A stretch of 64,000 nt of DNA from an uncultured Eubacterium sp. (GTDB taxonomy: Bacteria; Bacillota; Clostridia; Peptostreptococcales; Anaerovoracaceae). The position numbers and the translations under genes are program-made. The DNA lies in assembly GCA_946555345.1 (NCBI GenBank), contig CAMNSS010000003.1, positions 8,080 through 72,079 of the forward strand, in the 5' to 3' direction. The notes beneath the pieces were generated by a model. That model had not been told where the DNA came from, did not search any database, and worked only from the letters and a program-made list of their open reading frames with translations. This document shows positions 49,753-61,574 of the stretch, piece after piece. How positions within the stretch are numbered: position 1 is the stretch's first letter; every line of letters starts with the position of its first letter.

Positions 49753-49796
49753 AATTTTTCACGAGCATTTGTTTATGGTATGTATATAACATACGC

Positions 49797-50015
49797 GCCT
49801 GGCGGCGAGTTTCAGTGAACGCTTCCGCCCGGCAGCGCCGCATCAATCAGTGCGTTCATTATAACGAGCAGGCCCGGCGCCGAGTTTCAGTGAACGCTTC
49901 CGCCTGGCAACGCCGCATCAATCAGTGCGTTCATTATAACGAGCAGGCCTGGCGGCGAGTTTCAGTGAACGCTCCCGCCCGGCAACGCCGTACCAATCAG
50001 TGCGTTCATTATAAC
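49797..50015. repeat. 75-bp tandem repeat, about 3 copies
   Basis: GAGTTTCAGTGAACGC recurs at 49807, 49882 and 49957; each unit contains the inverted repeat TGAACGC...GCGTTCA. Confidence 0.9.
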
Positions 50016-50354
50016 ATACAAATTTTGCTTTTTCCATCATCTTGAACCTTTTCAATTCCAGCACCATGAGCAAAACTTCCAGCCAAATTGAAAAAGAGAT
50101 ATTTACTTTTGCAAATAAATATCTCCCTTTTCAATTAGTTTAGCATTTCATAAATCTCTTATTTGCCAGCCAGCTGCTGCTCAGCCATTTCGACTAACTT
50201 CTTAGTCATATAACCGCCAACGTAACCGTTCTGTCTAGCAGGTTAGAGAGTATCCCGTCCCTGTGGACAGCAAGCTGTAAATACTTGCGGTCAAATGATA
50301 CATATCCTTATAGCCAAACAGCATCATCAGCGCCTTTTCAAAAGCATATGGCAT

Positions 50355-50690
50355 TCACCGGCTTATTTCCAGCCAGATTTCCGCAAGCAATGCGGCGATC
50401 GCCTCTTTCTTTTCCCCAGGAAATTCTGCGATCCATTTGCCTGACTGGTCTATATGTTTGATGATAAACTGCTTATCCGAAAAGTGAGTGTCATATACCA
50501 AAGCATCCAGCCCCACGCCCATATGTTCTGAAATATGAATCGCTGTTTCAAGGGTCGTGTTCCCGTCCCGCAAAATGGCTCTCAATGTCGATTTCGGTAT
50601 ATCAAGCTCTTCTGAAAATTCCATTAGGGAAAGTTGCTGCGACTTTTGGTATGCTTTCAGGTTTTCTGACAACAAATTTCTTTTCTTCAT
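50355..50690 (-). CDS. Xre-family HTH protein
   Basis: LSENLKAY...FSEELDIPKSTL...NTTLETAIHIS...LDALV. Confidence 0.75.
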   Translation of the reverse strand: MKKRNLLSENLKAYQKSQQLSLMEFSEELDIPKSTLRAILRDGNTTLETAIHISEHMGVGLDALVYDTHFSDKQFIIKHIDQSGKWIAEFPGEKKEAIAALLAEIWLEISR

Positions 50691-50916
50691 CTTTTCCCTC
50701 CTTCTTGATCCGAGAAGGAGGAAGGATTATCTGTTTCCTTCTATATTTATTATATCACATTGCTTTTCATAAATCTACTATTTTCGACAAATTTAGACAA
50801 AAAATAAATTTCATGGAAGAGCAATTCCCTGCCAAAAAGGATGTTCGGATAAAACCCGCCCCTGCGCCAAGCACAAGGTTTTCTTTGCACAGAAAAGGCG
50901 GCAATGCGCCGCCCTC

Positions 50917-51108
50917 TCATTCGATATCATCGTACAGTTCATATGGATCAAGGCCCAGCGCCTTAGCGATGATGAGGCCGTTTTTTAAGTTCGGCTCCCT
51001 GCGCCCGCTCCGATATCCCTCTATCGTCCTGACGCTGATCCCCGTCATCTCTTCCAACTGCTTTGACGAAACCTTCTTTTCCTTCATAATTTCCGACAAC
51101 TTCATCAT
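50917..51108 (-). CDS. Xre HTH protein, cassette 1
   Basis: LEEMTGISVRTIEGYRSGRREP; ATG overlaps the upstream peptide stop (ATGA). Confidence 0.85.
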   Translation of the reverse strand: MMKLSEIMKEKKVSSKQLEEMTGISVRTIEGYRSGRREPNLKNGLIIAKALGLDPYELYDDIE

Positions 51109-51200
51109 TTCTTGCTCCTTTTCAATGCCGTAACCGCAACAGCTAAAGCCGCAATGCTGATGCACAGGCTCACGATTCGCATGATCATATCTATTTGCAT
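51105..51200 (-). CDS. 31-aa hydrophobic peptide B, cassette 1
   Basis: MQIDMIMRIVSLCISIAALAVAVTALKRSKK*; TM plus basic tail; no clear RBS. Confidence 0.55.
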   Translation of the reverse strand: MQIDMIMRIVSLCISIAALAVAVTALKRSKK

Positions 51201-51223
51201 ATTATAAAGATGGATGATATAAT
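51195..51223 (+). promoter_or_regulatory. Antisense promoter, cassette 1
   Basis: TTGCAT-N17-TATAAT with extended TG. Confidence 0.6.
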
Positions 51224-51254
51224 AAACATATGCCCCATAAGGGGCGGGGAAGTT

Positions 51255-51362
51255 TTATTTCTTCCCCTTCTTATCTCTGGTAACTATGGTTAATGTTATA
51301 ATCGAAGCGGTCAAACTAACGATTGATGTAACCATGTCTATCAGAGATTTTATTATATCCAT
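51255..51362 (-). CDS. 35-aa hydrophobic peptide A, cassette 1 (type I toxin-like)
   Basis: MDIIKSLIDMVTSIVSLTASIITLTIVTRDKKGKK*; RBS AAAGGAGGTG; TTGACA-N17-TATAAT at 51418-51390. Confidence 0.7.
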   Translation of the reverse strand: MDIIKSLIDMVTSIVSLTASIITLTIVTRDKKGKK

Positions 51363-51675
51363 CTTTCCCCACCTCCTTTCTATATTTCTATTATACGTCG
51401 TTCGGCGTGATTTGTCAAGTGCAAAATTGCTTTTTTTATCATTTTTTCCATTATTTTATATATGGAGAAACGCCCCATGCGCCAGCACAATCATGAAGGA
51501 AAACACAAATGCCATTTTAAACAACACCCTCAATGAAAGGGAATGCAATCGGAGGCGTGCGGCATTGCCATAAACGGACGGCTTTCACAAATCTGCACCC
51601 CAAACAAAACAACGGCGGAACACAAACCGAAATGAACCGCCCCTTTGCTTACAAGTTTACCGCATACCGCATCAC

Positions 51676-52131
51676 TTAGCCTTCACCCAAGCCAGCATCA
51701 AATGAAAGGTACGTTGTCAAAATTGCGATCATCTCCGTATTGGATGGCCTTTCAGCCAACGAACGCTTTGCCATCTCGCAAAGAAAACCGGGATTTCGTT
51801 CCCAGGAAATCCTGCAAATCGTACGGATGTTCCGCTCCACGCATTCAGGGCTTGTGTGATACCTTCTGGCTATGTCAGGGTAAAGCCATTTGGTTACAAG
51901 GAGCAATCGGTCAGGCTCTTGGATGCAAAGCGAAACAGCACAAGCCATATAATTAAACCCTGCATAATTAATCGTAATCCCCAGCCTGAATAAGATGAGC
52001 GACATTCTTTGAAAGGCTTCATGATCCACCTGTCCGCCATCGCCTCCATTTTCACAACCCCCAGAAAGGGCAGCGCCCGCAATTTCTTGCACATTTTCCA
52101 TTTCTTTCGACAATAAATTACTTTTTTCCAT
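51676..52131 (-). CDS. Stand-alone Spo0A C-terminal (DNA-binding) domain protein
   Basis: GFNYM, LLLVTKWLYPDIARRYHTSPECVERNIRT, PSNTEMIAIL; no receiver domain. Confidence 0.8.
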   Translation of the reverse strand: MEKSNLLSKEMENVQEIAGAALSGGCENGGDGGQVDHEAFQRMSLILFRLGITINYAGFNYMACAVSLCIQEPDRLLLVTKWLYPDIARRYHTSPECVERNIRTICRISWERNPGFLCEMAKRSLAERPSNTEMIAILTTYLSFDAGLGEG

Positions 52132-52221
52132 GTTTTTCGCCTCCTCTTTCTTTAAGCATAAAAGAAAAAGACGGAAAATAGGACGCAGGATTTTAGCAGG
52201 CCTGGGCGAAATTACGCCCGT

Positions 52222-52533
52222 TCATAACATTTCCTTGTTTTTCATAAAAAAATCCTGCCGATGATTATCAAAGAAACACCCGACGCTCCCCGCCCGGCGC
52301 TTTCCACGCATAAAAAACATTGCCCCGTCCTCCAACGGGCTTGCTGCGGGCGCAGGCTTTCCATCCTCCAGTTCATCGAGAACCCAGCCAGACGCGGCAT
52401 CCATGCCCATGAGGATAGCTTCTGCCAGCGTGCCGCCTCCACTGACACAACCGGGAAGGTCCGGAACCTCAACAGCATAAGCTCCCTGCTTTTCTTCATC
52501 AGGGTAAAAACAAGCGGGATACGTTAATTTCAT
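52222..52533 (-). pseudogene. hicB: HicB antitoxin, C-terminally truncated
   Basis: MKLTYPACFYP...VPDLPGCVSGG-TLAEA...LEDGKPAPAASPLE, then unrelated sequence in place of the RHH domain. Confidence 0.75.
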
Positions 52534-52570
52534 AGACGAAACTTCCTTTATGATATTGCAGCGCCGGGTT

Positions 52571-52748
52571 TTACAGCCCGGCCTGCTTGAAAATTTGTTT
52601 GACGATTTGCAGGGCAATGTCTCCGGGATGCTTAGGAATTGTGGCCTTGCCCGCCTTTGATGGGTGTGTGTACTGACAATGCGAACCCTTTGCTTTCTTG
52701 TACCGCCATCCATCCGCTAAAATATTTTTTTATTTCCCAAAATCCCAT
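52571..52748 (-). pseudogene. hicA: HicA toxin, frameshifted in an A-run near the 5' end
   Basis: MGFWEIKK / ILADGWRYKKAKGSHCQYTHPSKAGKATIPKHPGDIALQIVKQIFKQAGL*; RBS AAGGAGG. Confidence 0.8.
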
Positions 52749-52977
52749 GCTGCGACCTCCTTGCAAATCACATTATGCGCATAATACGCATAATCATCAA
52801 GCAATTTTTTGCATTTTATTAAAGAATTATAAAATAAAATGCTTCCCCGTTGTTGCTTGGCGAGGCGCTTCCCTTGCCCAAAATCCAGCCTGTTTATCAC
52901 GCCCCAAAAGAGGTCATTATTAACCTTTGCATCCCTTTCAATATCCATATAAGCAACGCATTGCATGAAAGATATCA

Positions 52978-53006
52978 TTGCCTCCGGCATCATTTTTTTG
53001 TATAAT
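52978..53006 (+). promoter_or_regulatory. Antisense promoter, cassette 2
   Basis: TTGCCT-N17-TATAAT pointing into the hairpin at 53014-53034. Confidence 0.6.
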
Positions 53007-53056
53007 AACAAAAAGGCGGTGACAAGCCCGCCCCAAACATTTTCTTAGCCTGCTGC

Positions 53057-53191
53057 CTATTCAGCAGGCTTTTCTTTTTCGAGAAGTTCTGCTACTTTCG
53101 CTTTTGCTTCCGCTAAATCTTCACACCCATCCAGGATCATAGCTACCATTTTCAGTATTTTGCCAAGCTGCTTGTCCGTCATGTTTTCCAT
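53057..53191 (-). CDS. 44-aa helical small protein, cassette 2
   Basis: MENMTDKQLGKILKMVAMILDGCEDLAEAKAKVAELLEKEKPAE*; RBS AAAGGAG. Confidence 0.7.
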   Translation of the reverse strand: MENMTDKQLGKILKMVAMILDGCEDLAEAKAKVAELLEKEKPAE

Positions 53192-53281
53192 TGTTTTCTC
53201 CTTTCTCTGCTTGCCCAGCAATTAAGTTAATGCCTTAACTTAATTGTATTATACTAATATTGGTATAACTTCAAATATTTT

Positions 53282-53509
53282 TTAAAAATATTTCAATTTT
53301 TCTTCATCCGTTATGACCATCTCTATAATGTCCCCCGGCTGCTTTCTGCACATGATGCAAATTTTATTAAGCGTATCCAACGTTATGCTTTTCCCGGCCT
53401 TTATATTTGTCATTGTCTGGCGCGGCAATAAATTCTCCTTTTGTATCCGCGTCTGGTTAAACCCGTGCTTTTTCATCTCTTCAAAAACATCTATTTTGTA
53501 CCGTATCAC
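53282..53509 (-). CDS. Cro/C1-type HTH protein
   Basis: GTG start after GGAGGG; TMTNIKAGKSITLDTLNKICIMCRKQPGDIIE. Confidence 0.82.
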   Translation of the reverse strand: MIRYKIDVFEEMKKHGFNQTRIQKENLLPRQTMTNIKAGKSITLDTLNKICIMCRKQPGDIIEMVITDEEKLKYF

Positions 53510-53905
53510 TGCCTTTCCCTCCTTACTTTGCAATCGTAACATTCCGGCATACAAACGCCAATGGGTTTTATCCTAAAATTAGTATGATTCTATCAAAACC
53601 GCATTATCTTGGCACATAAGGAGAAATCGTTATTCCCCGTCGCGCCGCAACAGCAATTAGGGGGATGCCGCCTACGATCAGAAGCCAGCCTGCCCGCCAT
53701 CTCCCCAATGGCGATTCCGTGCCAGTTGCAAACCAATCCGGAATTATATTCTTATTGGAAGCCCTGCATCCAGATGTCGACAGGCCTTATGCTGCAGCCA
53801 GCAAACATCGATTGAAACCATTCGCCATAAACGAAAAACACATCAAAAAATAAATTGCGTTTTTATCTTTTCGCCAAACTTTTTTAAAATACGCTGCAAT
53901 ACGCA

Positions 53906-53934
53906 TTGACATATTGTGCAATATGTAGTATAAT
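53906..53934 (+). promoter_or_regulatory. Consensus sigmaA promoter with palindromic operator, cassette 3
   Basis: TTGACA-N17-TATAAT; CATATTG-TG-CAATATG overlaps the spacer. Confidence 0.8.
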
Positions 53935-53997
53935 AAAGATAGTTAAGCGAGATCCATAAGCTTAATGAATACCGGGCAAGCGAGAAAGAAGAACAGC

Positions 53998-54138
53998 ATG
54001 GAAGACATGGACAAAAAGGAAATAAAAGAAGTCATTGAATGGTGTGATGAAAAAGGGCATAGCGAACATGAAATTTTGGATTTAATCAGAAGAATCGTGG
54101 ATGCAAAGCCTAGAAAAGAAGAAAAGCCTAACGAATAG
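53998..54138 (+). CDS. 46-aa small protein, cassette 3
   Basis: MEDMDKKEIKEVIEWCDEKGHSEHEILDLIRRIVDAKPRKEEKPNE*. Confidence 0.68.
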   Translation: MEDMDKKEIKEVIEWCDEKGHSEHEILDLIRRIVDAKPRKEEKPNE

Positions 54139-54216
54139 GCTTCCGGAAAACAGAAAGGGCGGCGGACTTGCCAAAGCCGCCCAGACTGTAAAATATATTG
54201 TATATCATTTGGCAAG
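54124..54216 (+). ncRNA. Candidate structured RNA element (two hairpins plus possible pseudoknot)
   Basis: AAGCCTA/TAGGCTT stem over the stop; GGGCGGC/GCCGCCC stem 54157-82; loop CTTGCCAAA complementary to TTTGGCAAG 54208-16. Confidence 0.5.
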
Positions 54217-54236
54217 AAAAAGGAAGAGGGAAACGG

Positions 54237-54437
54237 ATGCAAAAAGAAAAAAAAGAATTTGACCAGATCAAATACCAAAACAAATTCATCAAAGAAAAGT
54301 ACGACCGCATCAATTTAACCGTACCCAAAGGCGAAAAAGCGGCGATCAAAGAGAAAGCGGAAGCAGCCGGGGAAAGCGTAAACGAATATATAAACCAGGC
54401 CATAAAGAAAAGAATGGAAAGCGGGGAAAATGCTTGA
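54237..54437 (+). CDS. Ribbon-helix-helix (Arc/CopG-like) protein, cassette 3
   Basis: YDRINLTVPKGEKAAIKEKAEAAGESVNEYINQAI. Confidence 0.82.
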   Translation: MQKEKKEFDQIKYQNKFIKEKYDRINLTVPKGEKAAIKEKAEAAGESVNEYINQAIKKRMESGENA

Positions 54438-54845
54438 AAAATGCATTGTTGAAATCCGTTTTATGAAAGCCATGCCGTTTTGCCGCATAAAAAACCGCCG
54501 CCCCTCGATGCCCATCGCATGAGGGGCGGCATTTCACTGCGAGCATCTGTTGCTCCATGCACCCCAGCCTGCAAGAACGGGGCTTTCGCCCGTTTCCAAA
54601 CCATCAAAGCGGGCCTTGCCCGATTTCAGAATTTTCTCTCGTCTGCCAAATAAGCTTGCGTAATTTCCTTTTTTCATGCAGCAAAAGCTTCCCCGGCGTC
54701 TTCTATTTCTTCCACCTCCTGACGATTACTGCGATCAACACGATATCTGCAATAATAATGCCAATGTCCGCTACCATTCCTATGACCTTCATTTTCTTCT
54801 TTCTCTCCTTGTGACGGTCCATGTTGGCAACGAGCCGTGAAAAAG
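54334..54845. repeat. ~0.5-kb direct repeat, copy 1 (copy 2 at 56166-56650)
   Basis: Shared RHH 3' end, GC-rich terminator hairpin, peptide B gene and GAGCCGTGAAAAAG end. Confidence 0.85.
54703..54792 (-). CDS. 29-aa hydrophobic peptide B
   Basis: MKVIGMVADIGIIIADIVLIAVIVRRWKK*. Confidence 0.68.
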   Translation of the reverse strand: MKVIGMVADIGIIIADIVLIAVIVRRWKK

Positions 54846-54853
54846 CGATCTTT

Positions 54854-55057
54854 TTATTCTTCTTGTTCTGCTGCTTCCATTTTATCTTTTACCGCCGAAT
54901 ATACAAACTCATTCACGCTTTGCCCTGCCGCCGCTGCCCTTTCTTTTATAATTGCCTTTTCCCCCTTTGGCACAAGCAATTCCATGCGGTCATAAGTTCT
55001 TTTCTTGTATTCGTTCTGATACTTCACTTGGTCGAACTCTTTTTTTATTTTTGGCAT
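54854..55057 (-). CDS. Ribbon-helix-helix protein, cassette 4
   Basis: YDRMELLVPKGEKAIIKERAAAAGQSVNEFVYSAV; paralog of 54237..54437. Confidence 0.82.
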   Translation of the reverse strand: MPKIKKEFDQVKYQNEYKKRTYDRMELLVPKGEKAIIKERAAAAGQSVNEFVYSAVKDKMEAAEQEE

Positions 55058-55076
55058 TTATGCCCTCTTCCTTTCC

Positions 55077-55179
55077 CTTGCCAAATCGTGTATAATCTAT
55101 TTTACAGATATGGGCGGCTTTGGCAAGTCCGCCGCCCTTTCTGTTTCTTGGAAGCCTTACTATTTATTGAGTAAGGCTT
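55077..55179 (-). ncRNA. Candidate structured RNA element, second copy
   Basis: 10-bp stem over the stop (55152-79), GGGCGGC stem 55112-37 with identical loop, complement at 55077-85. Confidence 0.5.
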
Positions 55180-55300
55180 TTACTTTTTCCTTTGCTTCTG
55201 CAAGGTCTTTACTCTCATTTAAGATTTCAAGAATTTTTCTCGTCTGATTTTCCTCTGCCGTTTCTTTAAGGATTTCACCTACATTCATTTCTTCGTCCAT
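55160..55300 (-). CDS. 46-aa helical small protein, cassette 4
   Basis: MDEEMNVGEILKETAEENQTRKILEILNESKDLAEAKEKVKALLNK*; shares DLAEAK-KV--LL with 53057..53191. Confidence 0.72.
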   Translation of the reverse strand: MDEEMNVGEILKETAEENQTRKILEILNESKDLAEAKEKVKALLNK

Positions 55301-55364
55301 GTTTTTTTCCTTTCCCTGCCGCCCAGTTATTTGTTAAGTTTATGTATCTCCCTTAACTGTCTTT

Positions 55365-55393
55365 ATTATACAACATATTTCGTACTATGTCAA
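55365..55393 (-). promoter_or_regulatory. Consensus sigmaA promoter with direct-repeat operator, cassette 4
   Basis: TTGACA-N17-TATAAT; CATATTTCGTACTA occurs twice. Confidence 0.8.
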
Positions 55394-55539
55394 TACATAT
55401 TTCGTACTAATTAAAAAAGCATAATTTTTTTATGAGGAGAGGAAGGTATGAATATGCAATATATATTACGTAAATTAGATAATACATATTAGCAATACGT
55501 AATTTATGTAATATAATATGCATTGTAAGGCGGTTGGTT

Positions 55540-55716
55540 ATGAAAGGCAAAGAGCTTGTAAAGCTGTTCAAAAAAGATGGCTGGGAAGCGACCAGAGTAA
55601 GAGGAAGCCATCATGTGATGAAAAAAGGCAATTAGGTTGAAGTAATCCCAGTACATAGCACCGGCATACCAATCGGCCTGGCAAATAAAATACGAAAGCG
55701 GGCAGAGCTTAAATAA
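55540..55716 (+). pseudogene. hicA: HicA toxin with internal amber stop
   Basis: MKGKELVKLFKKDGWEATRVRGSHHVMKKGN*VEVIPVHSTGIPIGLANKIRKRAELK*; TAG at 55633-35. Confidence 0.82.
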
Positions 55717-55751
55717 ACCTAGCATCGCTTTGATTGAAGGGAACGCATATT

Positions 55752-56126
55752 ATGTTAAAAGTATATCCTGCCATATTTCATGAAGAAGACGGTTTCCGGG
55801 TCGAGTTCCCGGACCTTGATGGCTGCAATGCCTGTGGAAACACCCTTGAGGAAACTATGGAGCTTGCGCAAGAGGCGCTTTGCCTTTATCTTGCTACGCT
55901 TGCAGAAGAAGACCTTGAAATTCCTTTCCCATCACCCATAAAAGACATAAAAACCGACGGCTTTGTATCATATGTTTCCACAAACATGGATAAGTACCGC
56001 AGAAATAACAAGGCGGTTAAAAAAACGTTATCCATACCGCAATGGCTCGCCGATGAAGCAGAAAAAAATAATCTTAGCCTGTCCAAGGTTTTACAAGAAG
56101 GATTAAAAACCCGTCTTGGATTATAA
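55752..56126 (+). CDS. hicB: HicB antitoxin, intact
   Basis: YPAIFHEE, VEFPDLDGC, AQEAL, C-terminal KAVKKTLSIPQWL...SLSKVLQEGL. Confidence 0.9.
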   Translation: MLKVYPAIFHEEDGFRVEFPDLDGCNACGNTLEETMELAQEALCLYLATLAEEDLEIPFPSPIKDIKTDGFVSYVSTNMDKYRRNNKAVKKTLSIPQWLADEAEKNNLSLSKVLQEGLKTRLGL

Positions 56127-56165
56127 CGACAAAAGCCCCCATCGCCAGGGCTGGCCGCAAAATAA

Positions 56166-56650
56166 AAAAAGCGGCGGCCAAAGAGAAAGCGGAAGCAGCT
56201 GGGGAAAGCGCAAACGAATATAGAAACCAAGCCATAAAGAGAAAAATGGAGAGCGGGGAAAATGCTTGAAAACCGCACTGACAATCTCCTTTTTGTTGAA
56301 GCCATGCCGTTTTGCCGCATAAAAGAAACCGCCGCCCCTCGATGCCCATCGCATGAGGGGCGGCGGCATTTCACTGCAAGCATCTGTTGCTCCATGCACC
56401 CCAGCCTGCAAGAACAGGGCTTTGCTGATTCCAGGATTTCCGCTCGTCCGCCAAATGAGCTTGCGCGACTTCCTTTTTTCATGAATCAAATGCTTTCCCA
56501 GCGCCTTCTAGTTCTTCCACCTCCTGACGATTACTGCGATCAGCACGATATCTGCGATAATAATGCCAATGTCCGCTACAATTCCTATGATCTCCATTTC
56601 CTTCCTCCTCTCCCTGTGACGATTTATATTGACAACGAGCCGTGAAAAAG
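56166..56650. repeat. ~0.5-kb direct repeat, copy 2 (begins with an RHH 3' fragment)
   Basis: Aligns with 54334-54845. Confidence 0.85.
56508..56597 (-). CDS. 29-aa hydrophobic peptide B, cassette 5
   Basis: MEIIGIVADIGIIIADIVLIAVIVRRWKN*; RBS GAGGAGG. Confidence 0.72.
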   Translation of the reverse strand: MEIIGIVADIGIIIADIVLIAVIVRRWKN

Positions 56651-56657
56651 TTATCAT
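56629..56657 (+). promoter_or_regulatory. Antisense promoter, cassette 5
   Basis: TTGACA-N17-TATCAT directly before hairpin 56665-87. Confidence 0.7.
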
Positions 56658-56690
56658 TCTCTTAGGGCGGGGCTTTCGCCCCTGCCCTCC

Positions 56691-56810
56691 TTACTCAATC
56701 AGCTTATCAATCAGTGTTATGATTGCGCTGATGAGCTGAATTAAAACCGTGACGAGGATGATTTTTTCAACGTTGGTATCCTCTTTGCGGTTTTTCTTTT
56801 TCCTGCCCAT
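56691..56810 (-). CDS. 39-aa peptide A, cassette 5
   Basis: MGRKKKNRKEDTNVEKIILVTVLIQLISAIITLIDKLIE*; RBS AAGGAGG; TTGACA-N17-TATAAT at 56892-56864. Confidence 0.75.
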   Translation of the reverse strand: MGRKKKNRKEDTNVEKIILVTVLIQLISAIITLIDKLIE

Positions 56811-56938
56811 TGTTCCTGCCTCCTTTTTGTGATATATTTAAGTTAATTTCTTAACTTGGTTATATTATATCTTATTTTTATGAGATTGTCAATGTATTTT
56901 TCTTATTTTTATGAGATTTTGAATGGAGGGCAAAACCT

Positions 56939-57154
56939 GTGTTTTGGGAACGTTTTTACAGTATGTGCGTTGCAAAAGGCACAAAGCCAAACCCTGTTGC
57001 CAAAGAAATCGGCATTTCTTCTGGAATTGTAACTAAATGGAAAAATGTTGGGACACTCCCTAATGGTGAAACCTTAATTAAAATCGCCGACTACCTCGGC
57101 TGCTCCGTTGACTACCTCCTCGGCAGGACGGACAAACCAGAAGTAAACCGTTAG
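56939..57154 (+). CDS. Xre HTH repressor, divergent, cassette 5
   Basis: VAKEIGISSGIVTKWK...LIKIADYLGCSVDYLLGRTD; RBS GGAGG. Confidence 0.88.
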   Translation: MFWERFYSMCVAKGTKPNPVAKEIGISSGIVTKWKNVGTLPNGETLIKIADYLGCSVDYLLGRTDKPEVNR

Positions 57155-57230
57155 GTTTCTTTTTGTTTCCTTTCCCTGCCATCAGGATTGCAGGCAATGC
57201 GCCGTTCATTTCCTGCCCCCTTCTTTATAT

Positions 57231-57471
57231 TATACAGTTTCGTCAGTTTTCCCGTTCCGTTTTGGCGGGCTGGTTTCCCTTTGCAAGCAGGCATTCAAGC
57301 CCGCATCCCAGGACGTCCGCTATTTCCTTCCCGGCCTGCAGTGACGGGTTTTTCGTCCCCCCTTTCAACCTGGCAGAGCATCGCCTGGAAGATGCCCGCC
57401 CGTTCAGCAAGGCGCGCCTGCGTCAGCCCCTTTTCTTCCCTGATGCGGCGGATGTTGTCCCCTGCGCCCAT
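57231..57471 (-). pseudogene. Xre HTH gene with +1 frameshift in a G6 tract, cassette 6
   Basis: MGAGDNIRRIREEKGLTQARLAERAGIFQAMLCQVERG / TKNPSLQAGKEIADVLGCGLECLL; tract at 57357-62. Confidence 0.75.
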
Positions 57472-57560
57472 TATCCATTCCACCTTCTTGCGATATAGAC
57501 AATTACTGACAGATAAAAAACCACTTCAATTCCTTTAAAAACCCAATACAAAATATTCAT
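57471..57560 (-). CDS. 29-aa hydrophobic peptide B, cassette 6
   Basis: MNILYWVFKGIEVVFYLSVIVYIARRWNG*; stop overlaps the Xre ATG (TAATG). Confidence 0.68.
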   Translation of the reverse strand: MNILYWVFKGIEVVFYLSVIVYIARRWNG

Positions 57561-57593
57561 GTCCGCCATCCTTCCTTCATTAAAATATTTATA

Positions 57594-57622
57594 TTGACAA
57601 TGCGCCTCGAAAAAGTTATCAT
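57594..57622 (+). promoter_or_regulatory. Antisense promoter, cassette 6
   Basis: TTGACA-N17-TATCAT before hairpin 57630-52. Confidence 0.7.
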
Positions 57623-57652
57623 TTCCGTAGGGAGGGGCTTTCGCCCCATCCC

Positions 57653-57784
57653 TTACTCAATGAGTTCTTTGATGATTTCCATCAGTATCTCAATGAGCTC
57701 AAGTATTGCGATTGCAAGAAGTATGTGTTCTCTGTGTGAACTCTTCTTGCTTTCGCTTTTTTTGCGCTTCTTTTTCCTGCCCAT
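57653..57784 (-). CDS. 43-aa peptide A, cassette 6
   Basis: MGRKKKRKKSESKKSSHREHILLAIAILELIEILMEIIKELIE*; RBS AGGAGG; TTTACA-N17-TATAAT at 57866-57838. Confidence 0.72.
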   Translation of the reverse strand: MGRKKKRKKSESKKSSHREHILLAIAILELIEILMEIIKELIE

Positions 57785-57910
57785 TGCTTTTTGCCTCCTG
57801 TTCTGGTATATTTTAGTTAATTTCTTAACTTGGTTATATTATATCATGCTATTACGTGATTGTAAATACTTTTTTCATGTTTTAGCGTGATTTTTTAGGA
57901 GGGGTGTGTC

Positions 57911-58138
57911 ATGTATGATTTAGAACTAATTGCTTTTCGCATAAAACAAACTTCAAAAGCCAAGAAAATTCCCATGAAAACCCTTCTTTCAGAATGCCAT
58001 CTCGGCATTAACGCCGTATCTGAAATGGCAAAAGGAAAGACCATGTCTTCTATAAATCTCGCCAAAATCGCCGACTACCTCGGCTGCTCCGTTGACTACC
58101 TCCTCGGCAGGACGGACAAACCAGAAATTAATAAATAA
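57911..58138 (+). CDS. Xre HTH repressor, divergent, cassette 6
   Basis: C-terminal KIADYLGCSVDYLLGRTDKPE; RBS AGGAGG. Confidence 0.85.
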   Translation: MYDLELIAFRIKQTSKAKKIPMKTLLSECHLGINAVSEMAKGKTMSSINLAKIADYLGCSVDYLLGRTDKPEINK

Positions 58139-58182
58139 AAAACAAGCCCGCTTTTTCTTTGCCGCCTATCCGTCTCCCCAGC

Positions 58183-58335
58183 CTACCGCCTAACCAAATC
58201 CCTGACGATGCACCCCAGCAACGCCAACGCATTCAACGAAACAGCCACTTTACAAAACACCGTCCATTCAAGCGTTATTGCTATTACCAGATTTACGCCT
58301 AATGCCCCTGCCAGCCAGTTTCTTGCCTTGTTCAT
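58183..58335 (-). CDS. 50-aa two-TM peptide B, cassette 7
   Basis: MNKARNWLAGALGVNLVIAITLEWTVFCKVAVSLNALALLGCIVRDLVRR*; RBS GGGAGGG. Confidence 0.65.
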   Translation of the reverse strand: MNKARNWLAGALGVNLVIAITLEWTVFCKVAVSLNALALLGCIVRDLVRR

Positions 58336-58353
58336 GATAACCCTCCCTATCTA

Positions 58354-58382
58354 TTGACTTATCTATTACGATATGATAGACT
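58354..58382 (+). promoter_or_regulatory. Antisense promoter, cassette 7
   Basis: TTGACT-N17-TAGACT before the GC hairpin near 58389-58415. Confidence 0.5.
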
Positions 58383-58425
58383 TTTTACAAGGACGGGGGC
58401 TTCCGCCCCTGCCCTTGGCTATCCT

Positions 58426-58527
58426 TTAGGACTTAATAGCTGTTATCAAAGCGGCAATGGTGGCAACACTTTGGATAACGATATTTGCTATTTCCTTTTT
58501 GGATAGCTTTTCTTTTTCATCTTTCAT
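58426..58527 (-). CDS. 33-aa peptide A, cassette 7
   Basis: MKDEKEKLSKKEIANIVIQSVATIAALITAIKS*; RBS AAAGGAG; TTGACA-N17-TATAAT at 58589-58561. Confidence 0.7.
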   Translation of the reverse strand: MKDEKEKLSKKEIANIVIQSVATIAALITAIKS

Positions 58528-58677
58528 ATCGTTTTCTCCTTTCCTCTTGTCTGTAATTTTATTATAACTCTACTTTATGTAGATGTCAATACTTTTTGTA
58601 AACTTTTTTTAATTTTTGTATTGATTTTTTCTACTTTATGTAATATACTTTTCTATACAGGGAGGATTTTTCTAATT

Positions 58678-59340
58678 ATGAATGATGATCAATATAAAAG
58701 AATTTTTTCCGAAAACCTAAAGAGATACATGGCGTTAAATAACAAAAACCAAATAGATTTGATTAATGATTTAAAACTCAATAAATCCGCTGTTTCTACA
58801 TGGTGTAATGGAACAAGGCTTCCAAGAATGGATAAGATTGAAATTTTAGCAAAATACTTTAATGTCAATCGCTCTGACCTGATAGAAGAACATGATTTCA
58901 CTAATAATGCCACCGGCGGCCTCAATCCCTGCGGCAATACAGCCCCCCTCCCAGCGGAGAAAATCCCCCTGCTGGCCGGATTAGCCAATGGAGAACTTTT
59001 GTTCTACGGCGAGGACAGGGAAAGCTATGTCCTCGCAGGCACGGGCATTGACGCTGATTTCTGCCTCAAAGCCAGGGGGGACAGCATGATTGGCGCCAGG
59101 ATACTCGACGGGGACATCGTATTTATCAGAAAGACCAGCACGGTGGACAACGGGGAAGTTGCCGCCGTTGCAATGGACGATGAAGTGTCATTAAAACGGG
59201 TTTATTATTTCAAAGACGAAAGCCTGCTGATGCTCCTGTCCGAAAATCCGCAATACCCGCCGGAGTGCTATAAGGGCGGGCAACTGGATCACATACGGAT
59301 TCTCGGCAAGGCCGTTGCCTTCCAGGGCAGTATCATATAA
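58678..59340 (+). CDS. CI/LexA-like repressor (Xre HTH plus S24 peptidase), divergent, cassette 7
   Basis: VSTWCNGTRLPRMDKIE HTH; GDSM (catalytic Ser), DGDIVFI, SLKRV (catalytic Lys), SENP; cleavage-site-like LAG. Confidence 0.92.
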   Translation: MNDDQYKRIFSENLKRYMALNNKNQIDLINDLKLNKSAVSTWCNGTRLPRMDKIEILAKYFNVNRSDLIEEHDFTNNATGGLNPCGNTAPLPAEKIPLLAGLANGELLFYGEDRESYVLAGTGIDADFCLKARGDSMIGARILDGDIVFIRKTSTVDNGEVAAVAMDDEVSLKRVYYFKDESLLMLLSENPQYPPECYKGGQLDHIRILGKAVAFQGSII

Positions 59341-59610
59341 GCGATGCCAGAGAAATTTGCCTTTCAGCCAAATGTTTCACCGCCTTCGTAAAATCATTGC
59401 TGCCTTTTATTTGTAATCACGTTAGGATGTTGTCTCACAGTGAGGATTTCAGCCTCCCTGTGAAGGCTTTGCGGCTAGCTCGTCCAAAATCTCAATTAAC
59501 ATTTTTAAATGTTCGTTGGGATTTTTTATTATTTTACAATATGATAATTTACAAAAGGCGCTTTGCAAAGAAATAAACGGGCTGCACAACAGTTTCAGCC
59601 CGTTTGTTTC

Positions 59611-59796
59611 TTATTTCTGTAATTCCTGGCAGACACAATCGATTCCTTTCCTGATGATATCGGTTTTTGTCATCCCGGTTTTTTCCATGCAAAATCTTAT
59701 CTTTTGCATATCTTCTTCGGAAAGCCTGAAACTTTCCCGGTAGCTTTTAGGATTGTCAGTAGGCCTGCCCATCCGTTTCTTTTCTATTTTCATCAC
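59611..59796 (-). CDS. RHH/CopG-like small DNA-binding protein, cassette 8
   Basis: MGRPTDNPK..ESFRLSEED...TGMTKTDIIRKGI. Confidence 0.78.
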   Translation of the reverse strand: MMKIEKKRMGRPTDNPKSYRESFRLSEEDMQKIRFCMEKTGMTKTDIIRKGIDCVCQELQK

Positions 59797-59805
59797 CTCT
59801 TGACC

Positions 59806-59869
59806 CTTGCCATGATAAACATATATATGATAATATATATTTAGTAATTGGGCGGTGGCAAGCCCGCCC
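59806..59869 (-). ncRNA. Candidate structured RNA element, third copy
   Basis: GGGCGG/CCGCCC stem with loop GCTTGCCA; complement TGGCAAG at 59812-06 just before the RBS. Confidence 0.45.
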
Positions 59870-59898
59870 TTTACTGTTTTGCTGGGTTATGCCCCTTT

Positions 59899-60054
59899 TT
59901 AGTCTTCCAAAGTGCTTTGAAGGTTGTCCAAAATCTTTTCAAGCCTTTGGTTTTTCTTTTTTTCATCCGTTTCTTCCTTTGCCTCTTTCAGGTCGTCTAT
60001 CAGAAATCGGATGAACCCGTTGAACTGCTTGTCTGTCATTCCCATGCCCTGCAT
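59899..60054 (-). CDS. 51-aa helical small protein, cassette 8
   Basis: MQGMGMTDKQFNGFIRFLIDDLKEAKEETDEKKKNQRLEKILDNLQSTLED*; MTDKQ shared with 53057..53191; TTGACT-N17-TATAAT at 60145-60117. Confidence 0.72.
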   Translation of the reverse strand: MQGMGMTDKQFNGFIRFLIDDLKEAKEETDEKKKNQRLEKILDNLQSTLED

Positions 60055-60158
60055 ATTGTCTCCTTTCCGGCTTCTTGCCTGCCTTACTTGTTAAGTTTTC
60101 CCTTAACTGTAATTATATTATACATTATGTTATGACAAAAGTCAAGAGGTTTTGAAAA

Positions 60159-60401
60159 TTATTTATGAAATTCTTCAAGGTCGCTGACCCTATGGTTTAC
60201 GACTTTTATCTTTTCTTTATTAATGCCCACCGCCTGTTCAAGCAGATAAGTGCGCTCCACGAGGTTGTTGTGCTTGTCCACTTTCTTTTCAAGTTGCCCG
60301 ATCCTGTAGCCTGTCAGCCTGCTCGACGCAATCACGCCGAACAGGGAGCCTAAAAGACCCCCCGCCGCCGCAATGGCGGCAACGATGATTTCCGTGTCCA
60401 T
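60159..60401 (-). CDS. Phage lysis-module membrane protein (TM plus coiled coil, XhlA-like)
   Basis: N-terminal TM, LEKKVDKHNNLVERTY coiled region; follows the endolysin. Confidence 0.6.
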   Translation of the reverse strand: MDTEIIVAAIAAAGGLLGSLFGVIASSRLTGYRIGQLEKKVDKHNNLVERTYLLEQAVGINKEKIKVVNHRVSDLEEFHK

Positions 60402-60412
60402 AGCTCCCCCTC

Positions 60413-61291
60413 CTACAGCCTGCTGTTGATGTAGCGCTGCCATGCCCTGACGGTTTTTGCTCCCATGTATCCGTCAATCTGCCCGCACGGGAAGCCTTTG
60501 CCCTGCAAAAGCCCCTGCATGGCCGTGACAGTCTGCTTTCCTGCCTTGCCGTCCGGCGCTGCCCCTGCCAGCCCCTGGATTGCCCGCACCATTGGCGAAC
60601 CGTTACCTGTTTTCCCGAAAGACCACGAAGACACAAGGCAGTTTGGCAAATACTGCTTACAGCTTATGAGCTGCCCTGACACGATGCCGTCAGCAGGCGT
60701 CCCCATCACCGCCTGGGTCTTCCTTGTGGTGTCCTTCCCCCACTTGCCATCCTCATCCAGCTTCCCCGGCAGCCTGCCTGATGGGGCTTCGCCTGTGTCT
60801 GCCGCGCCGCCCATCGCAGCGGTCACCATATTTAAAAACCTCTGCCATCCGTAAGCCATCGTCCTGTGCGGGCAGTCCTTGCCGCTCCAGTCCTTGTGCC
60901 GCCTTACCCGGTCAATGCCCCAGCCGTAAGATTTTAGCAATGAGGCGATGTACGCCGCCGCATTCTGCTCTGCCGCATCAAACCTTGCGCCCCCGGACCT
61001 CGAGTAGCAGATTTCTATCCCAATCGACTTGCGGTTTCCCGTGCCGTTCCCGCCGTCCCCGGCATGGAACGCATTTCGGTCAAACGGGAGGCAACGCACG
61101 ACTTCCTTGTCATCCACTGCCACGTGGTAAGATGTCGAAGAACTGTTGTTCCTCATGTAATTCGCCTCGTTCCTTGCGCTTGCGTCGTTTGCCGTGTTAT
61201 GCACCGTGACGTACTGCGGCGTCATTTTGTACGGGCTTTTCTTCCCGTACTTGCCGGACGGTACCGGCAGGTCAATTATCGTGTATGGCAT
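60413..61291 (-). CDS. Endolysin, N-acetylmuramoyl-L-alanine amidase (Amidase_2, XlyA-like) with PG-binding repeats
   Basis: TVHNTANDASARNE, HAGDG, SIGIEICYS, HKDWSGKDCPH; DG-x2-G-x2-T repeats. Confidence 0.92.
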   Translation of the reverse strand: MPYTIIDLPVPSGKYGKKSPYKMTPQYVTVHNTANDASARNEANYMRNNSSSTSYHVAVDDKEVVRCLPFDRNAFHAGDGGNGTGNRKSIGIEICYSRSGGARFDAAEQNAAAYIASLLKSYGWGIDRVRRHKDWSGKDCPHRTMAYGWQRFLNMVTAAMGGAADTGEAPSGRLPGKLDEDGKWGKDTTRKTQAVMGTPADGIVSGQLISCKQYLPNCLVSSWSFGKTGNGSPMVRAIQGLAGAAPDGKAGKQTVTAMQGLLQGKGFPCGQIDGYMGAKTVRAWQRYINSRL

Positions 61292-61313
61292 TTATTTTCC
61301 CTCCATCAAATTT

Positions 61314-61574
61314 TCAACAACCTTTTTTACTTTTGCCCCTGGCGTCCCCATCATCAACGGCTCCACCGTCCGTTTCCCTGCACTCCGGCAGCCCCGCCAC
61401 CGACGTCAGCAGGGACAAAGCCCCAGCCATGAGCGCTGCGGATGCCACAGCGAGCCAATTCACGTCCGTGACCAGCGTAGATGCGCCGATCGTTGCCACG
61501 GCCGCCTGGGCAACCGTCCTGATTGCCCTCGTTGCCGCAGCCTTCCACCATTTTTTGTTTATTGTTTTTGACAT
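61314..61574 (-). CDS. Phage holin (r1t-like)
   Basis: WWKAAATRAIRTVAQAAVA...VNW...LSLLTSVAGLPE. Confidence 0.85.
   Translation of the reverse strand: MSKTINKKWWKAAATRAIRTVAQAAVATIGASTLVTDVNWLAVASAALMAGALSLLTSVAGLPECRETDGGAVDDGDARGKSKKGC

Follow-up and report, generated by a model that had tools for sequence, protein, structure and literature searches.

We propose, with a probability of about 0.6 for the explanation as a whole, that the array described here is the accessory ('moron') arm of a temperate phage of ~45 kb from a gut Clostridia species, and that recombination assembled it from small expression units that regulate themselves. Its eight cassettes fall into class I (B, C, D and H, with an orphan peptide in E) and class II (A, E, F and G), and units of both classes are found in other genomes.

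Prophage setting and the shared cassette chassis

Within the window, the whole 64,000-nucleotide stretch of DNA that was analysed, positions 50241-60145 form the accessory part of a serine-integrase prophage of ~45 kb, with lysis genes on one side and the putative attL on the other, and the cassettes lie inside this prophage directly after the holin and endolysin genes (Table 1). A second copy of the 21-bp repeat lies 45.1 kb away, outside the window and 19 bp past the stop of a 442-aa serine recombinase gene, and this one repeat is the sole basis of the att assignment. No host CRISPR spacer matched the prophage as a target.

The features listed in the original prediction, an array of self-contained small cassettes, are all present in the sequence where it had placed them. 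Its seven strong promoters with a 17-bp spacer comprise five perfect matches and two that match at 11 of 12 positions, and the unit near 53250 (cassette G), described as weaker, has a good -10 and a poor -35. This 10 kb holds 5 of the 20 perfect promoters of the whole 2.85-Mb genome (Poisson P~1e-8) and 9 of the 111 genome-wide sites with at most one mismatch (P~4e-10), and the genome-wide count found no such sites elsewhere in the prophage.

The chassis runs from a consensus sigma-A promoter through a common AT-rich discriminator, a leader hairpin starting at about +1 (in A, C, D, E, F and G, six of the eight) and an unpaired ribosome site to one small cargo gene and a GC-rich hairpin. A strong Shine-Dalgarno (SD) sequence, a 33-51-aa ORF and a GC-rich hairpin had been claimed for every cassette, which holds generally, the exception being the weak SD of F (GAAAGAAG). 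Promoter and leader form a portable module, which species genomes contain in at least 119 stretches; of 126 leader matches, 73 have a -35 at a distance of 17 bp, and 43 of these 73 have the 5'-terminal hairpin, versus 6% in shuffles. The cargo behind this leader is diverse, and the hairpin may protect the mRNA 5' end.

Operator-like repeats are specific to each locus. One copy lies inside the 17-bp spacer in C, D, E, F and G, and most of these carry a second copy upstream of the -35, as with the 17-bp repeat CTTATTTTTATGAGATT at D; the motif ACATAAAGTAG stands beside the start of the CI/LexA-like repressor gene and again in the spacer of promoter B, and class II palindromes overlap the -10. 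Because every promoter has its own operator-like repeats and its own adjoining regulator, the orthogonal regulation that had been proposed is a fair reading of the sequence.

The idea of a modular, shuffled array was likewise borne out, as units recur as units elsewhere, near-identical arrays differ in whether they contain cassette C, and L016 has this array connected to another lysis module. The array is nearly intact in at least eight independent metagenomic contigs, with two different lysis modules. The place of class II units in other prophages varies: they follow the lysis genes, separate these from the tail-fibre genes or stand next to the integrase, and the lysis modules beside them vary too. 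Recombination has also left a ~500-bp duplicated block and the inverted duplicates E and F.

Table 1. Features of the array and its surroundings, from the lysis module to the putative attL (window positions)
Feature	Position	Strand	Basis or remark
Prophage lysis module (context)	60159-61574	-	Pfam
r1t-type holin	61314-61574	-	Pfam Phage_r1t_holin 1.5e-15
Amidase_2 endolysin	60413-61291	-	Pfam Amidase_2 3e-23
XhlA-like	60159-60443	-	Pfam XhlA weak, 0.009
Perfect TTGACA-17-TATAAT promoters (B, D, E, H)	58589-58561, 56892-56864, 55393-55365, 51418-51390	-	Sequence
Perfect TTGACA-17-TATAAT promoter (F)	53906-53934	+	Sequence
11/12-match promoters (A, C)	60145-60117, 57866-57838	-	Sequence
Cassette A, class II	59565-60145	-	Leader hairpin 60107-60090
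A1, 51-aa acidic ORF	60054-59899	-	Member of 1337-strong family
A, GC hairpin	59869-59850		
A, RHH gene	59793-59611	-	
A, terminator	about 59603-59565		
CI/LexA-like repressor (HTH + Peptidase_S24)	58621-59340	+	Divergent from promoter B; Pfam S24 3.4e-20
Cassette B, class I	58183-58589	-	Sequence, hydropathy
B1, 33 aa	58527-58426	-	
B, GC hairpin	about 58416-58389		
B, weak antisense promoter	58354-58382	+	
B2, 50 aa	58335-58183	-	
Xre-type HTH gene, 75 aa	57911-58138	+	Divergent from promoter C; Pfam HTH_26
Cassette C, class I	57295-57866	-	Leader hairpin
C1, 43-aa polybasic membrane peptide	57784-57653	-	
C, GC hairpin	57653-57629		
C, antisense promoter TTGACA-17-TATCAT	57594-57622	+	Just below hairpin
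C2, 32 aa	57569-57471	-	
C, Xre gene	57483-57295	-	Overlaps C2; frameshifted here
Xre-type HTH gene, 71 aa	56939-57154	+	Divergent from promoter D; Pfam HTH_3 2.2e-8
Cassette D, class I, without third gene	56320-56892	-	Leader hairpin; CTTATTTTTATGAGATT in spacer and upstream of -35
D1, 39 aa	56810-56691	-	
D, GC hairpin	56688-56664		
D, antisense promoter TTGACA-17-TATCAT	56629-56657	+	Just below hairpin
D2, 29 aa	56597-56508	-	
D, terminator	56365-56320	-	Preceded by duplicated non-coding block
hicA with in-frame TAG; intact hicB	55534-55700; 55734-56126	+	Pair 55534-56126; Pfam HicB_lk_antitox 3e-13
Cassette E, class II chimera	54490-55393	-	AGTACGAAATATGT twice; leader hairpin
E1, 46 aa, acidic	55300-55160	-	
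E, GC hairpin	about 55140-55111		
E, RHH gene	55057-54854	-	
E3, orphan class-I-type peptide, 29 aa	54792-54703	-	Decayed antisense promoter before E3
E, terminator	54530-54490		
Cassette F, class II	53906-54437	+	Leader hairpin; inverted duplicate of E
F1, 46 aa, acidic	53998-54138	+	
F, GC hairpin	about 54157-54183		
F, RHH gene	54237-54437	+	
HTH_26 gene and cassette G	53013-53554	-	
HTH_26 gene upstream of G	53554-53282	-	
Cassette G, class II, TATAAT -10	53255-53250	-	Weak -35; -10 within 18-bp near-palindrome
G, 12-bp leader hairpin	53247-53222		
G1, 44 aa, acidic	53191-53057	-	
G, two terminator hairpins	53070-53047, 53034-53013		
Second decayed hicAB pair	52222-52766	-	
Frameshifted hicA	about 52766-52570	-	
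Truncated hicB-like gene	52533-52222	-	Pfam HicB_lk_antitox 2.4e-12, profile positions 1-63 of 123
Spo0A C-terminal DNA-binding domain without receiver domain, 151 aa	51676-52131	-	Pfam Spo0A_C 8e-28
Cassette H, class I	50917-51418	-	
H1, 35 aa	51362-51255	-	
H, bidirectional hairpins	51267-51232		
H, antisense promoter, TG-extended	51194-51223	+	
H2, 31 aa	51200-51105	-	
H, Xre gene, translationally coupled	51108-50917	-	
Xre-type HTH gene, 111 aa	50355-50690	-	Final gene before attL; Pfam HTH_3
Putative attL core CGTAACCGTTCTGTCTAGCAG	50221-50241		21-bp direct repeat

Anatomy and predicted workings of the two classes

The division into two classes made in the original prediction agrees with our results, with a second hydrophobic peptide in B, C, D and H, an RHH gene downstream in A, E and F, and none downstream in G. 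Family searches of the small peptides (PADLOC, Pfam, NCBIfam and PHROGs) matched no characterised family, whether of toxins, holins, Acr or defence proteins, in either class.

Class I cassettes consist of an operator-bearing consensus promoter, a small membrane peptide, a GC hairpin, a convergent antisense promoter, a second membrane peptide and a coupled repressor, and all eight peptides exceed 1.8 in a 19-residue hydropathy window. The antisense -35 and -10 are kept in C, D and the divergent L024, with a variable spacer centre; this promoter is decayed in E, where target ORF and hairpin are absent, and weak or doubtful in B, H, L046, L056 and L149. No clean terminator was found in the sequence for the predicted antisense RNAs of C and D. 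The hairpins of D and C differ by one compensatory C-G to A-U change. The complete three-gene unit also occurs in L024 and, with unrelated peptides and an RHH third gene, in L046, L056 and L085 (Lachnospiraceae, Erysipelotrichaceae), and the Xre gene of cassette C is intact (75 aa) in L018, L019 and L023. Differences between near-identical arrays, including the small-ORF variants, are mostly synonymous. Against the proposed reading, the polybasic end of C1 has five non-synonymous changes versus one synonymous.

These observations lead us to suggest that the promoter just past the hairpin fires back to give a cis-antisense RNA against the peptide mRNA, and that the operon runs on into the second small membrane peptide and then, in its complete form, into a repressor gene coupled to it in translation (Xre in this array, RHH in other genomes). 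In classical type I systems the toxin mRNA is translationally silent. The SD of the class I mRNAs, in contrast, is unpaired, which would leave control to the repressor and the antisense RNA. Class I cassettes would then be modules resembling type I toxin-antitoxin systems, built like yonT-yoyJ/SR6 but with a transcriptional lock added, and their likely role would be prophage stabilisation, or the killing or arrest of the cell once control is lost. That the first peptide is toxic and that the antisense RNA exists, taken as a joint claim, seems reasonably probable.

In class II, the same type of promoter and leader drives a 44-51-aa acidic protein, and a regulator gene lies close by, of the RHH type except in G, which has an HTH_26 gene immediately upstream. 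On sequence evidence, this protein family is real: it has 1337 homologues among database clusters (E<=0.01), all annotated as hypothetical, it comprises 352 clusters at 50% identity, and its sequence is strongly conserved. The AF2 model is a helical hairpin (pLDDT about 78), for which Foldseek returned no match. Class II units occur at prophage ends in many gut Clostridia and also in the isolated phage Saumur. The regulator beside the cargo is an RHH protein in all sampled contexts but one, L009, where the neighbour is AbrB-like, and it lies either downstream or, as a separate transcription unit, upstream. Class II has weak antisense promoters or none. We propose that the class II promoter is shut by the neighbouring repressor (RHH in A, E and F, and probably the upstream HTH_26 protein in G) and that these are 'repressor plus cargo' units of the acr-aca type, whose cargo would act on a host or rival-phage protein. 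An anti-defence function is possible, and equally so a function as antirepressor or other regulator, some other role taking the rest of the odds.

Alternative readings of the array

Rather than addiction toxins, the class I peptides might be membrane effectors that the phage regulates in the course of its life cycle, that is, holin/antiholin-like lysis timers or superinfection-exclusion proteins, with antisense RNA and repressor setting the timing. Their location directly after the holin and endolysin genes would suit such effectors, as would an SD free for translation, two different small membrane peptides per unit, reminiscent of holin-antiholin pairs, and the control of cassette B by a divergent CI/LexA-like S24 repressor, under which it should switch on at SOS induction. 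We nevertheless find this doubtful, since units are also found away from lysis genes, the convergent-antisense layout is typical of type I toxin-antitoxin systems, one phage would seem to have little need of four lysis timers in parallel and the peptides have no holin-family similarity. It is very unlikely that the array is mostly a graveyard of earlier phages' immunity regions and cargo that have lost their function. Parts of it have indeed decayed, with two broken hicA genes (for the one at 55534-55700, the 31-aa fragment in L017-L019 matches HicA_toxin), a truncated hicB, a frameshifted Xre gene, a 3' remnant of an RHH gene and the orphan peptide with its decayed antisense promoter, and some units may therefore be dead. 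However, drift would not have spared five perfect and four near-perfect promoters, and the mainly synonymous character of the small-ORF variants, the near-intact arrays in independent contigs with two lysis modules and the conservation of the class II family all argue against a general loss of function.

For class II, it is conceivable but unlikely that the cargo consists specifically of antirepressors or SinI-like antagonists whose helical hairpin binds the DNA-binding repressor of the same or a rival prophage, the RHH-cargo unit being a small switch like P22 immI. The modelled acidic two-helix fold resembles small protein antagonists, 11 DNA-binding regulator genes crowd the array, and P0227 is a fusion of an Xre HTH domain with a G-type hairpin; but this fusion is a single 2.2-kb metagenomic contig among 352 clusters, the hairpin family has no homology to the C terminus of the array's 111-aa Xre protein and there is no Pfam SinI match. 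Moreover, identical cargo (P0093) is found with three different regulators and operators, so the partner of the cargo would not be the neighbouring regulator. The same exchange of regulators makes it very unlikely that class II cassettes are type II toxin-antitoxin pairs, with the RHH protein as antitoxin and the small acidic protein as toxin. The two genes are tightly linked, and the RHH proteins weakly match the antitoxin families TacA1, DUF6290 and the HicB C terminus. Toxin and antitoxin are expected to co-evolve, yet the same cargo sequence pairs with RHH proteins of only 41% identity and with the AbrB-like protein. The variable placement of the regulator and the absence of an RHH gene in G also speak against such pairs, and we know of no type II toxin that resembles a 45-aa acidic soluble hairpin. 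Constant cargo with an exchangeable regulator thus favours the 'repressor plus cargo' logic over a toxin-antitoxin pair.

Comparison with known systems

The published system most like class I is the type I toxin-antitoxin system yonT-yoyJ/SR6 of the Bacillus subtilis prophage SPbeta (Reif et al. 2018, PMC5848175). Both are prophage-borne, possibly with several modules per prophage, and both have a polycistronic mRNA with a small toxin-type ORF first and a second small ORF after it (a weaker toxin in SPbeta), as well as a convergent antisense RNA, predicted in class I, whose start lies between the two ORFs and which overlaps the first ORF in its 3' part. They share no sequence similarity, and YonT has 58 aa and a basic C terminus (PMC5848175), whereas C1 and D1 have 39-43 aa and a basic N terminus. 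Class I, as read from the sequence, further differs in its operator-bearing promoter, its 5'-terminal mRNA hairpin and free SD, the translationally coupled Xre or RHH repressor that ends the operon, and a predicted antisense start beyond the ribosome site of the second ORF, so that the antisense RNA would not cover that site. The type I modules of the Clostridioides difficile prophages phiCD630-1 and phiCD630-2 (reviewed in PMC6563280) are likewise found several to a prophage in Clostridia, with 34-53-aa membrane toxins, convergent antisense RNAs (predicted in class I) and a proposed role in prophage stabilisation. As described there, they lack the repressor gene of class I, and their toxins have a hydrophobic N terminus and a Lys-rich C terminus, as here only H1 and H2 do; no homology between these toxins and the class I peptides was detected.

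Class II is laid out like acr-aca anti-defence operons, including those of the RHH regulator Aca14 (NAR 2026, PMC13551039), with a strong promoter whose -10 is overlapped by a repeat or palindrome, small cargo genes adjoining a small RHH repressor, a regulator family swapped from locus to locus and a location in the accessory parts of mobile elements; structured 5' UTRs, comparable to the class II leader hairpin, are reported for some Aca operons. The likeness of the RHH proteins to Aca14 is one of layout, and the cargo family matches no known Acr. Acr proteins are generally larger than this cargo. The immI region of P22 (mnt, arc, sar antisense RNA and ant) similarly recalls the array as a secondary RHH-controlled unit in a temperate-phage late region, with an antisense RNA and a repressor-acting cargo, but Ant has about 300 aa versus the 44-51 aa of the cargo, there is no homology and the class II antisense promoters are weak or absent.

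The original prediction did not recognise the architecture as a described system. With the class I layout being that of yonT-yoyJ/SR6 and the class II layout that of repressor-controlled anti-defence operons, the kind of system is already known; the gene families and the shared promoter-leader are new.

An array of small cassettes at the prophage end

The eight small cassettes at 50917-60145 (A to H, numbered from the lysis end, with ORFs A1, B2 and so on) had been predicted to form an array of units with near-consensus promoters, and the promoter scan confirmed this. As many as 5 of the 20 perfect TTGACA-17-TATAAT sites of the whole 2.85-Mb genome fall in these 10 kb (P~1e-8), with none in the remainder of the prophage, and the array holds 9 of the genome's 111 sites that depart from the consensus by one mismatch or none. 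The ribosome site (SD), the 33- to 51-aa ORF and the GC-rich hairpin claimed for each unit are present 3' of the promoter in all eight cassettes, and the SD is strong in every one except F, where it is weak. Four cassettes (class I: B, C, D, and H) encode a membrane peptide, a GC hairpin, a second membrane peptide and, in C and H, a putative repressor, and the other four (class II: A, E, F, and G) encode a 44- to 51-aa acidic cargo protein near a DNA-binding regulator (RHH; HTH_26 in G).

Coordinates and sizes of features of the array and its borders
Feature	Window position	Strand	Basis or remark
Perfect TTGACA-17-TATAAT	58589, 56892, 55393, 51418	-	promoter scan
Perfect TTGACA-17-TATAAT	53906	+	promoter scan
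11/12-match promoters	60145, 57866		promoter scan
Class I first ORFs			B1 33 aa, C1 43 aa, D1 39 aa, H1 35 aa
Class I second peptides			past hairpin; B2 50 aa, C2 32 aa, D2 29 aa, H2 31 aa
Antisense promoters of C and D	57594-57622 and 56629-56657	opposite	TTGACA-17-TATCAT; 11/12 positions match
hicA, in-frame TAG	55534-55700	+	neighbouring hicB intact
hicA, frameshifted	52570-52766	-	its hicB truncated
Spo0A_C-only protein	51676-52131	-	151 aa; Pfam 8e-28
Duplicated block, ~500 bp	54334-54858 and 56166-56663		includes RHH gene 3' remnant
GC-rich non-coding block, ~350 bp	54334-54700 and 56166-56500		84-98% identity
r1t-type holin	61314-61574	-	Pfam
Amidase_2 endolysin	60413-61291	-	Pfam
XhlA-like gene		-	Pfam; part of lysis module
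First copy of 21-bp CGTAACCGTTCTGTCTAGCAG	50221		putative attL
75- to 77-bp tandem repeats	49785-50015		just outside putative attL
Weak AaHKsRNA41 match	59483-59608	+	26.7 bits; gathering score 97

Lysis and tail genes identified by Pfam lie beside the array at the window end, on the minus strand. The second copy of CGTAACCGTTCTGTCTAGCAG is 45.1 kb from the first on the same contig, 19 bp past the stop of a gene for a 442-aa large serine recombinase, and the two copies are taken as putative attL and attR; so read, they would place 50241-60145, about 22% of the prophage, inside it, between the lysis genes and attL. Host genes (GNAT, nucleosidase) start below 49752. An empty att site was sought in same-genus genomes, which are too divergent, and in same-species contigs, which all end at a 75-bp tandem repeat. 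The tandem repeats just outside attL share the motif TATAATGAACGCACTGATTG with repeats at the ends of two other host contigs (C26, 34579-34881; C29, 16850-17034). Megablast with the array as query found no match among isolated phages, and Rfam gave nothing above threshold over 48000-62000; the weak AaHKsRNA41 match, in the gap between the cassette A RHH terminator and the end of a CI-like gene, is most likely due to chance.

The array had also been described as modular and shuffled, and comparison loci from other genomes and metagenomic contigs (L numbers) bear this out. Cassette C is present or absent among near-identical metagenomic arrays, the array of L016 (also an IMG/VR viral contig) is joined to another lysis module (Holin_SPP1 and Peptidase_M15_3), and E and F are inverted duplicates converging on a common terminator. 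C and D form a diverged tandem repeat with a ~970-bp period, and a block of ~500 bp is duplicated. Small-ORF changes among near-identical arrays are mostly synonymous, the exception being the polybasic end of C1. Neither hicAB copy of the array has an intact HicA beside HicB.

Several other features were seen in the same region. The GC-rich non-coding block, downstream of E3 and D2, comprises a strong bidirectional terminator and the RHH 3' remnant, and in sister contigs L017-L019 the TAG-interrupted hicA likewise appears, as a fragment of 31 aa. A protein consisting of the Spo0A C-terminal DNA-binding domain alone, lacking the receiver domain, is conserved in sister arrays L016-L018 and may interfere with host sporulation control.

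Class I units and their predicted antisense RNAs

All eight class I peptides (29-50 aa) contain a hydrophobic 19-residue Kyte-Doolittle window of 1.87-2.87, and B1, B2, C1, C2, D1, D2, H1, and H2 are each small (<60 aa) hydrophobic peptides of the kind expected of toxin-antitoxin (TA) systems of type I. C1 and D1 begin with a polybasic stretch (MGRKKK...). The ends of C2 and H2 overlap the starts of Xre genes (TAATG and ATGA), suggesting that each pair is translationally coupled; the Xre gene of cassette C is frameshifted in the source genome and intact (75 aa) in L018, L019, and L023. Between D and C, a double change in the GC hairpin (C-G to A-U) preserves the pairing.

Directly past the hairpins of C and D stands an opposite-strand promoter whose predicted antisense transcript would have its start at the hairpin and traverse the first ORF in the reverse direction. 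In H, behind an opposite-strand TTTGCA-18-TATAAT with a TG extension, come a pair of short hairpins and a T-run, and the predicted antisense RNA of ~50 nt would cover the end of H1. The corresponding site of B is weaker, and both B and H are weaker than C and D. When C, D and their divergent homologue L024 are aligned, the antisense -35 and -10 are kept and the spacer centre varies. Cassette E carries an orphan second peptide behind its RHH gene, without first ORF or hairpin, and at this site decay has left the antisense promoter as TTGGCA and GCGATC.

Whole class I units recur as units elsewhere. L024 holds a D1 homologue of 40 aa that differs by conservative substitutions, together with a hairpin, TTGACA-17-TATCCT, a second peptide of 29 aa and a coupled Xre gene (67 aa), and in L046 (Lachnospiraceae MAG), L056 (Firmicutes bacterium M10-2), and L085 (Erysipelotrichaceae MAG) the first slot is taken by unrelated polybasic peptides and the third gene encodes an RHH protein. 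That these properties are kept without sequence conservation argues that the small ORFs are translated. Searches by sequence returned little: Pfam, NCBIfam, and PHROGs at E<0.1 gave no family for any small peptide, the toxin families Fst/Ldr, TxpA/BsrG, YonT, and Hol-Tox being unmatched, and PADLOC assigned none in the array. A protein database search for D1 found D1 itself and one relative only, the C1/D1 alignment gave only pattern matches among viral contigs, none confirmed by tblastn, the C/D antisense-promoter pattern matched a sister contig alone among viral contigs, and a DNA search with cassette D in 60 relatives gave only AT-rich promoter look-alikes.

Class II cargo, regulators, and the shared promoter-leader

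The class II first ORFs are acidic (pI 4.7-5.0), with no membrane segment. A profile of the four cargo proteins found 1337 proteins at E<=0.01 in a 5.8-billion-protein collection, in sharply conserved subtypes and none with a name or Pfam domain, and scanning the 50% representatives in full with HMMER yielded 352 clusters, every one of them small; longer proteins in the representative search, considered as fusion partners, were nearly all artefacts of read-through or start calling. Two subtypes were modelled with AlphaFold2, and both models are helical hairpins (pLDDT 78). Foldseek of both against the PDB found no relative, and Pfam, NCBIfam, and PHROGs likewise gave these candidate anti-defence proteins no family. 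A SinR/SinI-like pairing through the C-terminal domain of a 111-aa Xre protein was rejected, as hhalign found no relation of that domain to the hairpin family. In one metagenomic ORF (P0227, L170:1449-1844), an Xre HTH is fused to a G-type hairpin, with a possible internal SD and start ahead of the hairpin part; the fusion hints that joint action of the hairpin with a DNA-binding domain is possible.

The family lies at prophage ends, beside lysis modules (Amidase_2, Amidase_3, or LysM/CHAP, with holins r1t, 1, 5, or 6), in the interval between tail fibre and lysis genes, or beside a serine integrase, and a member occurs in 8 of 399 evenly sampled species genomes of the class (~2%). In the isolated Clostridium phage Saumur, a member directly follows an annotated "Arc-like repressor." In the Anaerostipes-like contigs L006-L008 and L010, the prophage end with an A-type unit is 1-5 kb from host cas genes (cas1/2/4/3 or cas6/cas7). 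The source host itself has an intact type I-C CRISPR-Cas system with 36 spacers (C8:7779-10268), in which self-targeting was sought as a sign of anti-CRISPR activity. None of the 36 spacers matches the prophage, and the sole host-gene match, spacer 11 to a spoIIIAG-like gene (34/34; C16:67449-67482), lies beside a non-canonical PAM (ATC versus TTC).

An RHH gene adjoins the cargo, upstream or downstream, in all sampled contexts but one, L009, where the neighbour is AbrB-like; RHH matches were obtained in the window, L007, L011, L026, L031, and phage Saumur, most of them below the Pfam cut-off. The promoters of E and F hold operator-like, locus-specific repeats (AGTACGAAATATGT twice in E and a TGCAATAYG-type motif twice in F), with copies in the promoter spacer and upstream of the -35. 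G and its relatives have a TATAC-N8/9-GTATA palindrome over the -10, an 18-bp near-palindrome in G, and palindromes also cover the -10 in L007, L011, L031, and L033.

The predicted transcripts of A, C, D, E, F, and G begin with (A)AGTTAAG...CTTAAC-type hairpins 6-8 nt past the -10, at about +1, with loops of 4 to 13 nt and the SD unpaired in the folds. The arms covary between loci (GTTAAG/CTTAAC, TTAAGC/GCTTAA, and GTTAAAG/CTTTAAC, with some G-U pairs). The 20-mer TATAATAAAGAYAGTTAARG occurs in at least 119 stretches of one-genome-per-species contigs, where chance would give an estimated ~4 if base composition were uniform and a larger number if genomes are AT-rich, and its matches are mostly in Lachnospiraceae, Oscillospiraceae, and other gut Firmicutes. 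In 73 of the 126 matches listed, a -35 with no more than one mismatch stands at 17 bp; a 5'-terminal hairpin is found in 43 of these 73, versus 6% of shuffled controls and 3 of 35 matches without a -35. Behind the leader are all class II subtypes, polybasic membrane peptides, a 92-aa family, HicA, and an AbrB-type protein. Individual loci have the leader driving an intact HicA (L146), an AbrB/MazE-type protein (L098), a DUF4160-like protein (L135), and the recurrent 92-aa protein (MSKNELVAKIEAL...; L042, L105, L116-L118, and L122). We infer from these sequences that the promoter-leader is a portable expression module whose hairpin would guard the mRNA 5' end; alternatively, the hairpin may bind protein or RNA.

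Possible roles and relation to known systems

The boldest reading, with a probability of only about 0.3, is that gut Clostridia phages share a standard chassis (consensus promoter with an operator slot, 5' hairpin, and strong SD) into which recombination swaps small cargo and cognate repressors, that the commonest cargo, the acidic two-helix proteins (more than 1300 unannotated database clusters), is a new class of tiny anti-defence or anti-repressor effectors, and that the arsenal of this prophage consists of four of these and four RNA-guarded membrane toxins, independently keyed. The class I units are probably membrane toxins guarded by both RNA and repressor, and a divergent S24 repressor probably links cassette B to the SOS response. 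The main rival takes the same peptides, encoded next to a lysis module, as lysis-timing or exclusion peptides; the toxin reading draws on their size and hydrophobicity and on the predicted antisense RNAs.

The class II units, in turn, are probably units in which a repressor gates the delivery of a small soluble effector, and here the main rivals are that they are antirepressors or TA pairs. A type II TA system would be a cognate, co-evolving pair, whereas one and the same 51-aa cargo protein, P0093, is combined with three distinct spacer operators and as many distinct regulators, namely, two RHH proteins of 41% mutual identity and an AbrB-like protein. Cargo and regulator are thus independent modules, a finding that weighs against a TA pair and in favour of the scheme of acr-aca operons, "repressor plus cargo."

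Small ORFs at the prophage ends of gut Firmicutes are mostly unannotated and form an invisible cargo layer, and this locus indicates that such units can make up a fifth of one prophage, with the strongest predicted promoters of the genome. Inhibition of host immunity or of rival prophages is a possible role of the acidic hairpin proteins with their putative RHH control. The promoter-leader sequence alone offers a search handle for diverse unannotated cargo genes in more than 100 species genomes and could be used in Clostridia as an expression part that is both strong and repressible. A tractable model is phage Saumur, which has a class II unit and whose host, Enterocloster clostridioformis, belongs to the OMM12 mouse consortium.

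The original prediction did not recognize the architecture as a described system, and this holds in part. In the literature consulted, we found no description of these gene families, of control in three layers as in class I, of the promoter-leader that the units share, or of eight units packed into 10 kb; the novelty stands for the gene families and the promoter-leader and falls for the kinds of system, as phage morons, type I TA, and regulated cargo of the acr-aca-like sort are already known. The class II units resemble acr-aca operons in the strong promoter with a repeat or palindrome over its core (E, F, G, and relatives) and in the small adjoining DNA-binding regulator (HTH or RHH), a putative repressor; Aca14, an RHH regulator with an inverted repeat over the -10, represses its own and the neighbouring operon (PMC13551039). 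Prophages of C. difficile and B. subtilis are known to carry several type I TA modules each (PMC6563280). The class I layout is likened to yonT-yoyJ/SR6, the type I TA system of phage SPbeta (PMC5848175), and its three-gene module would add a transcriptional lock to the type I design.
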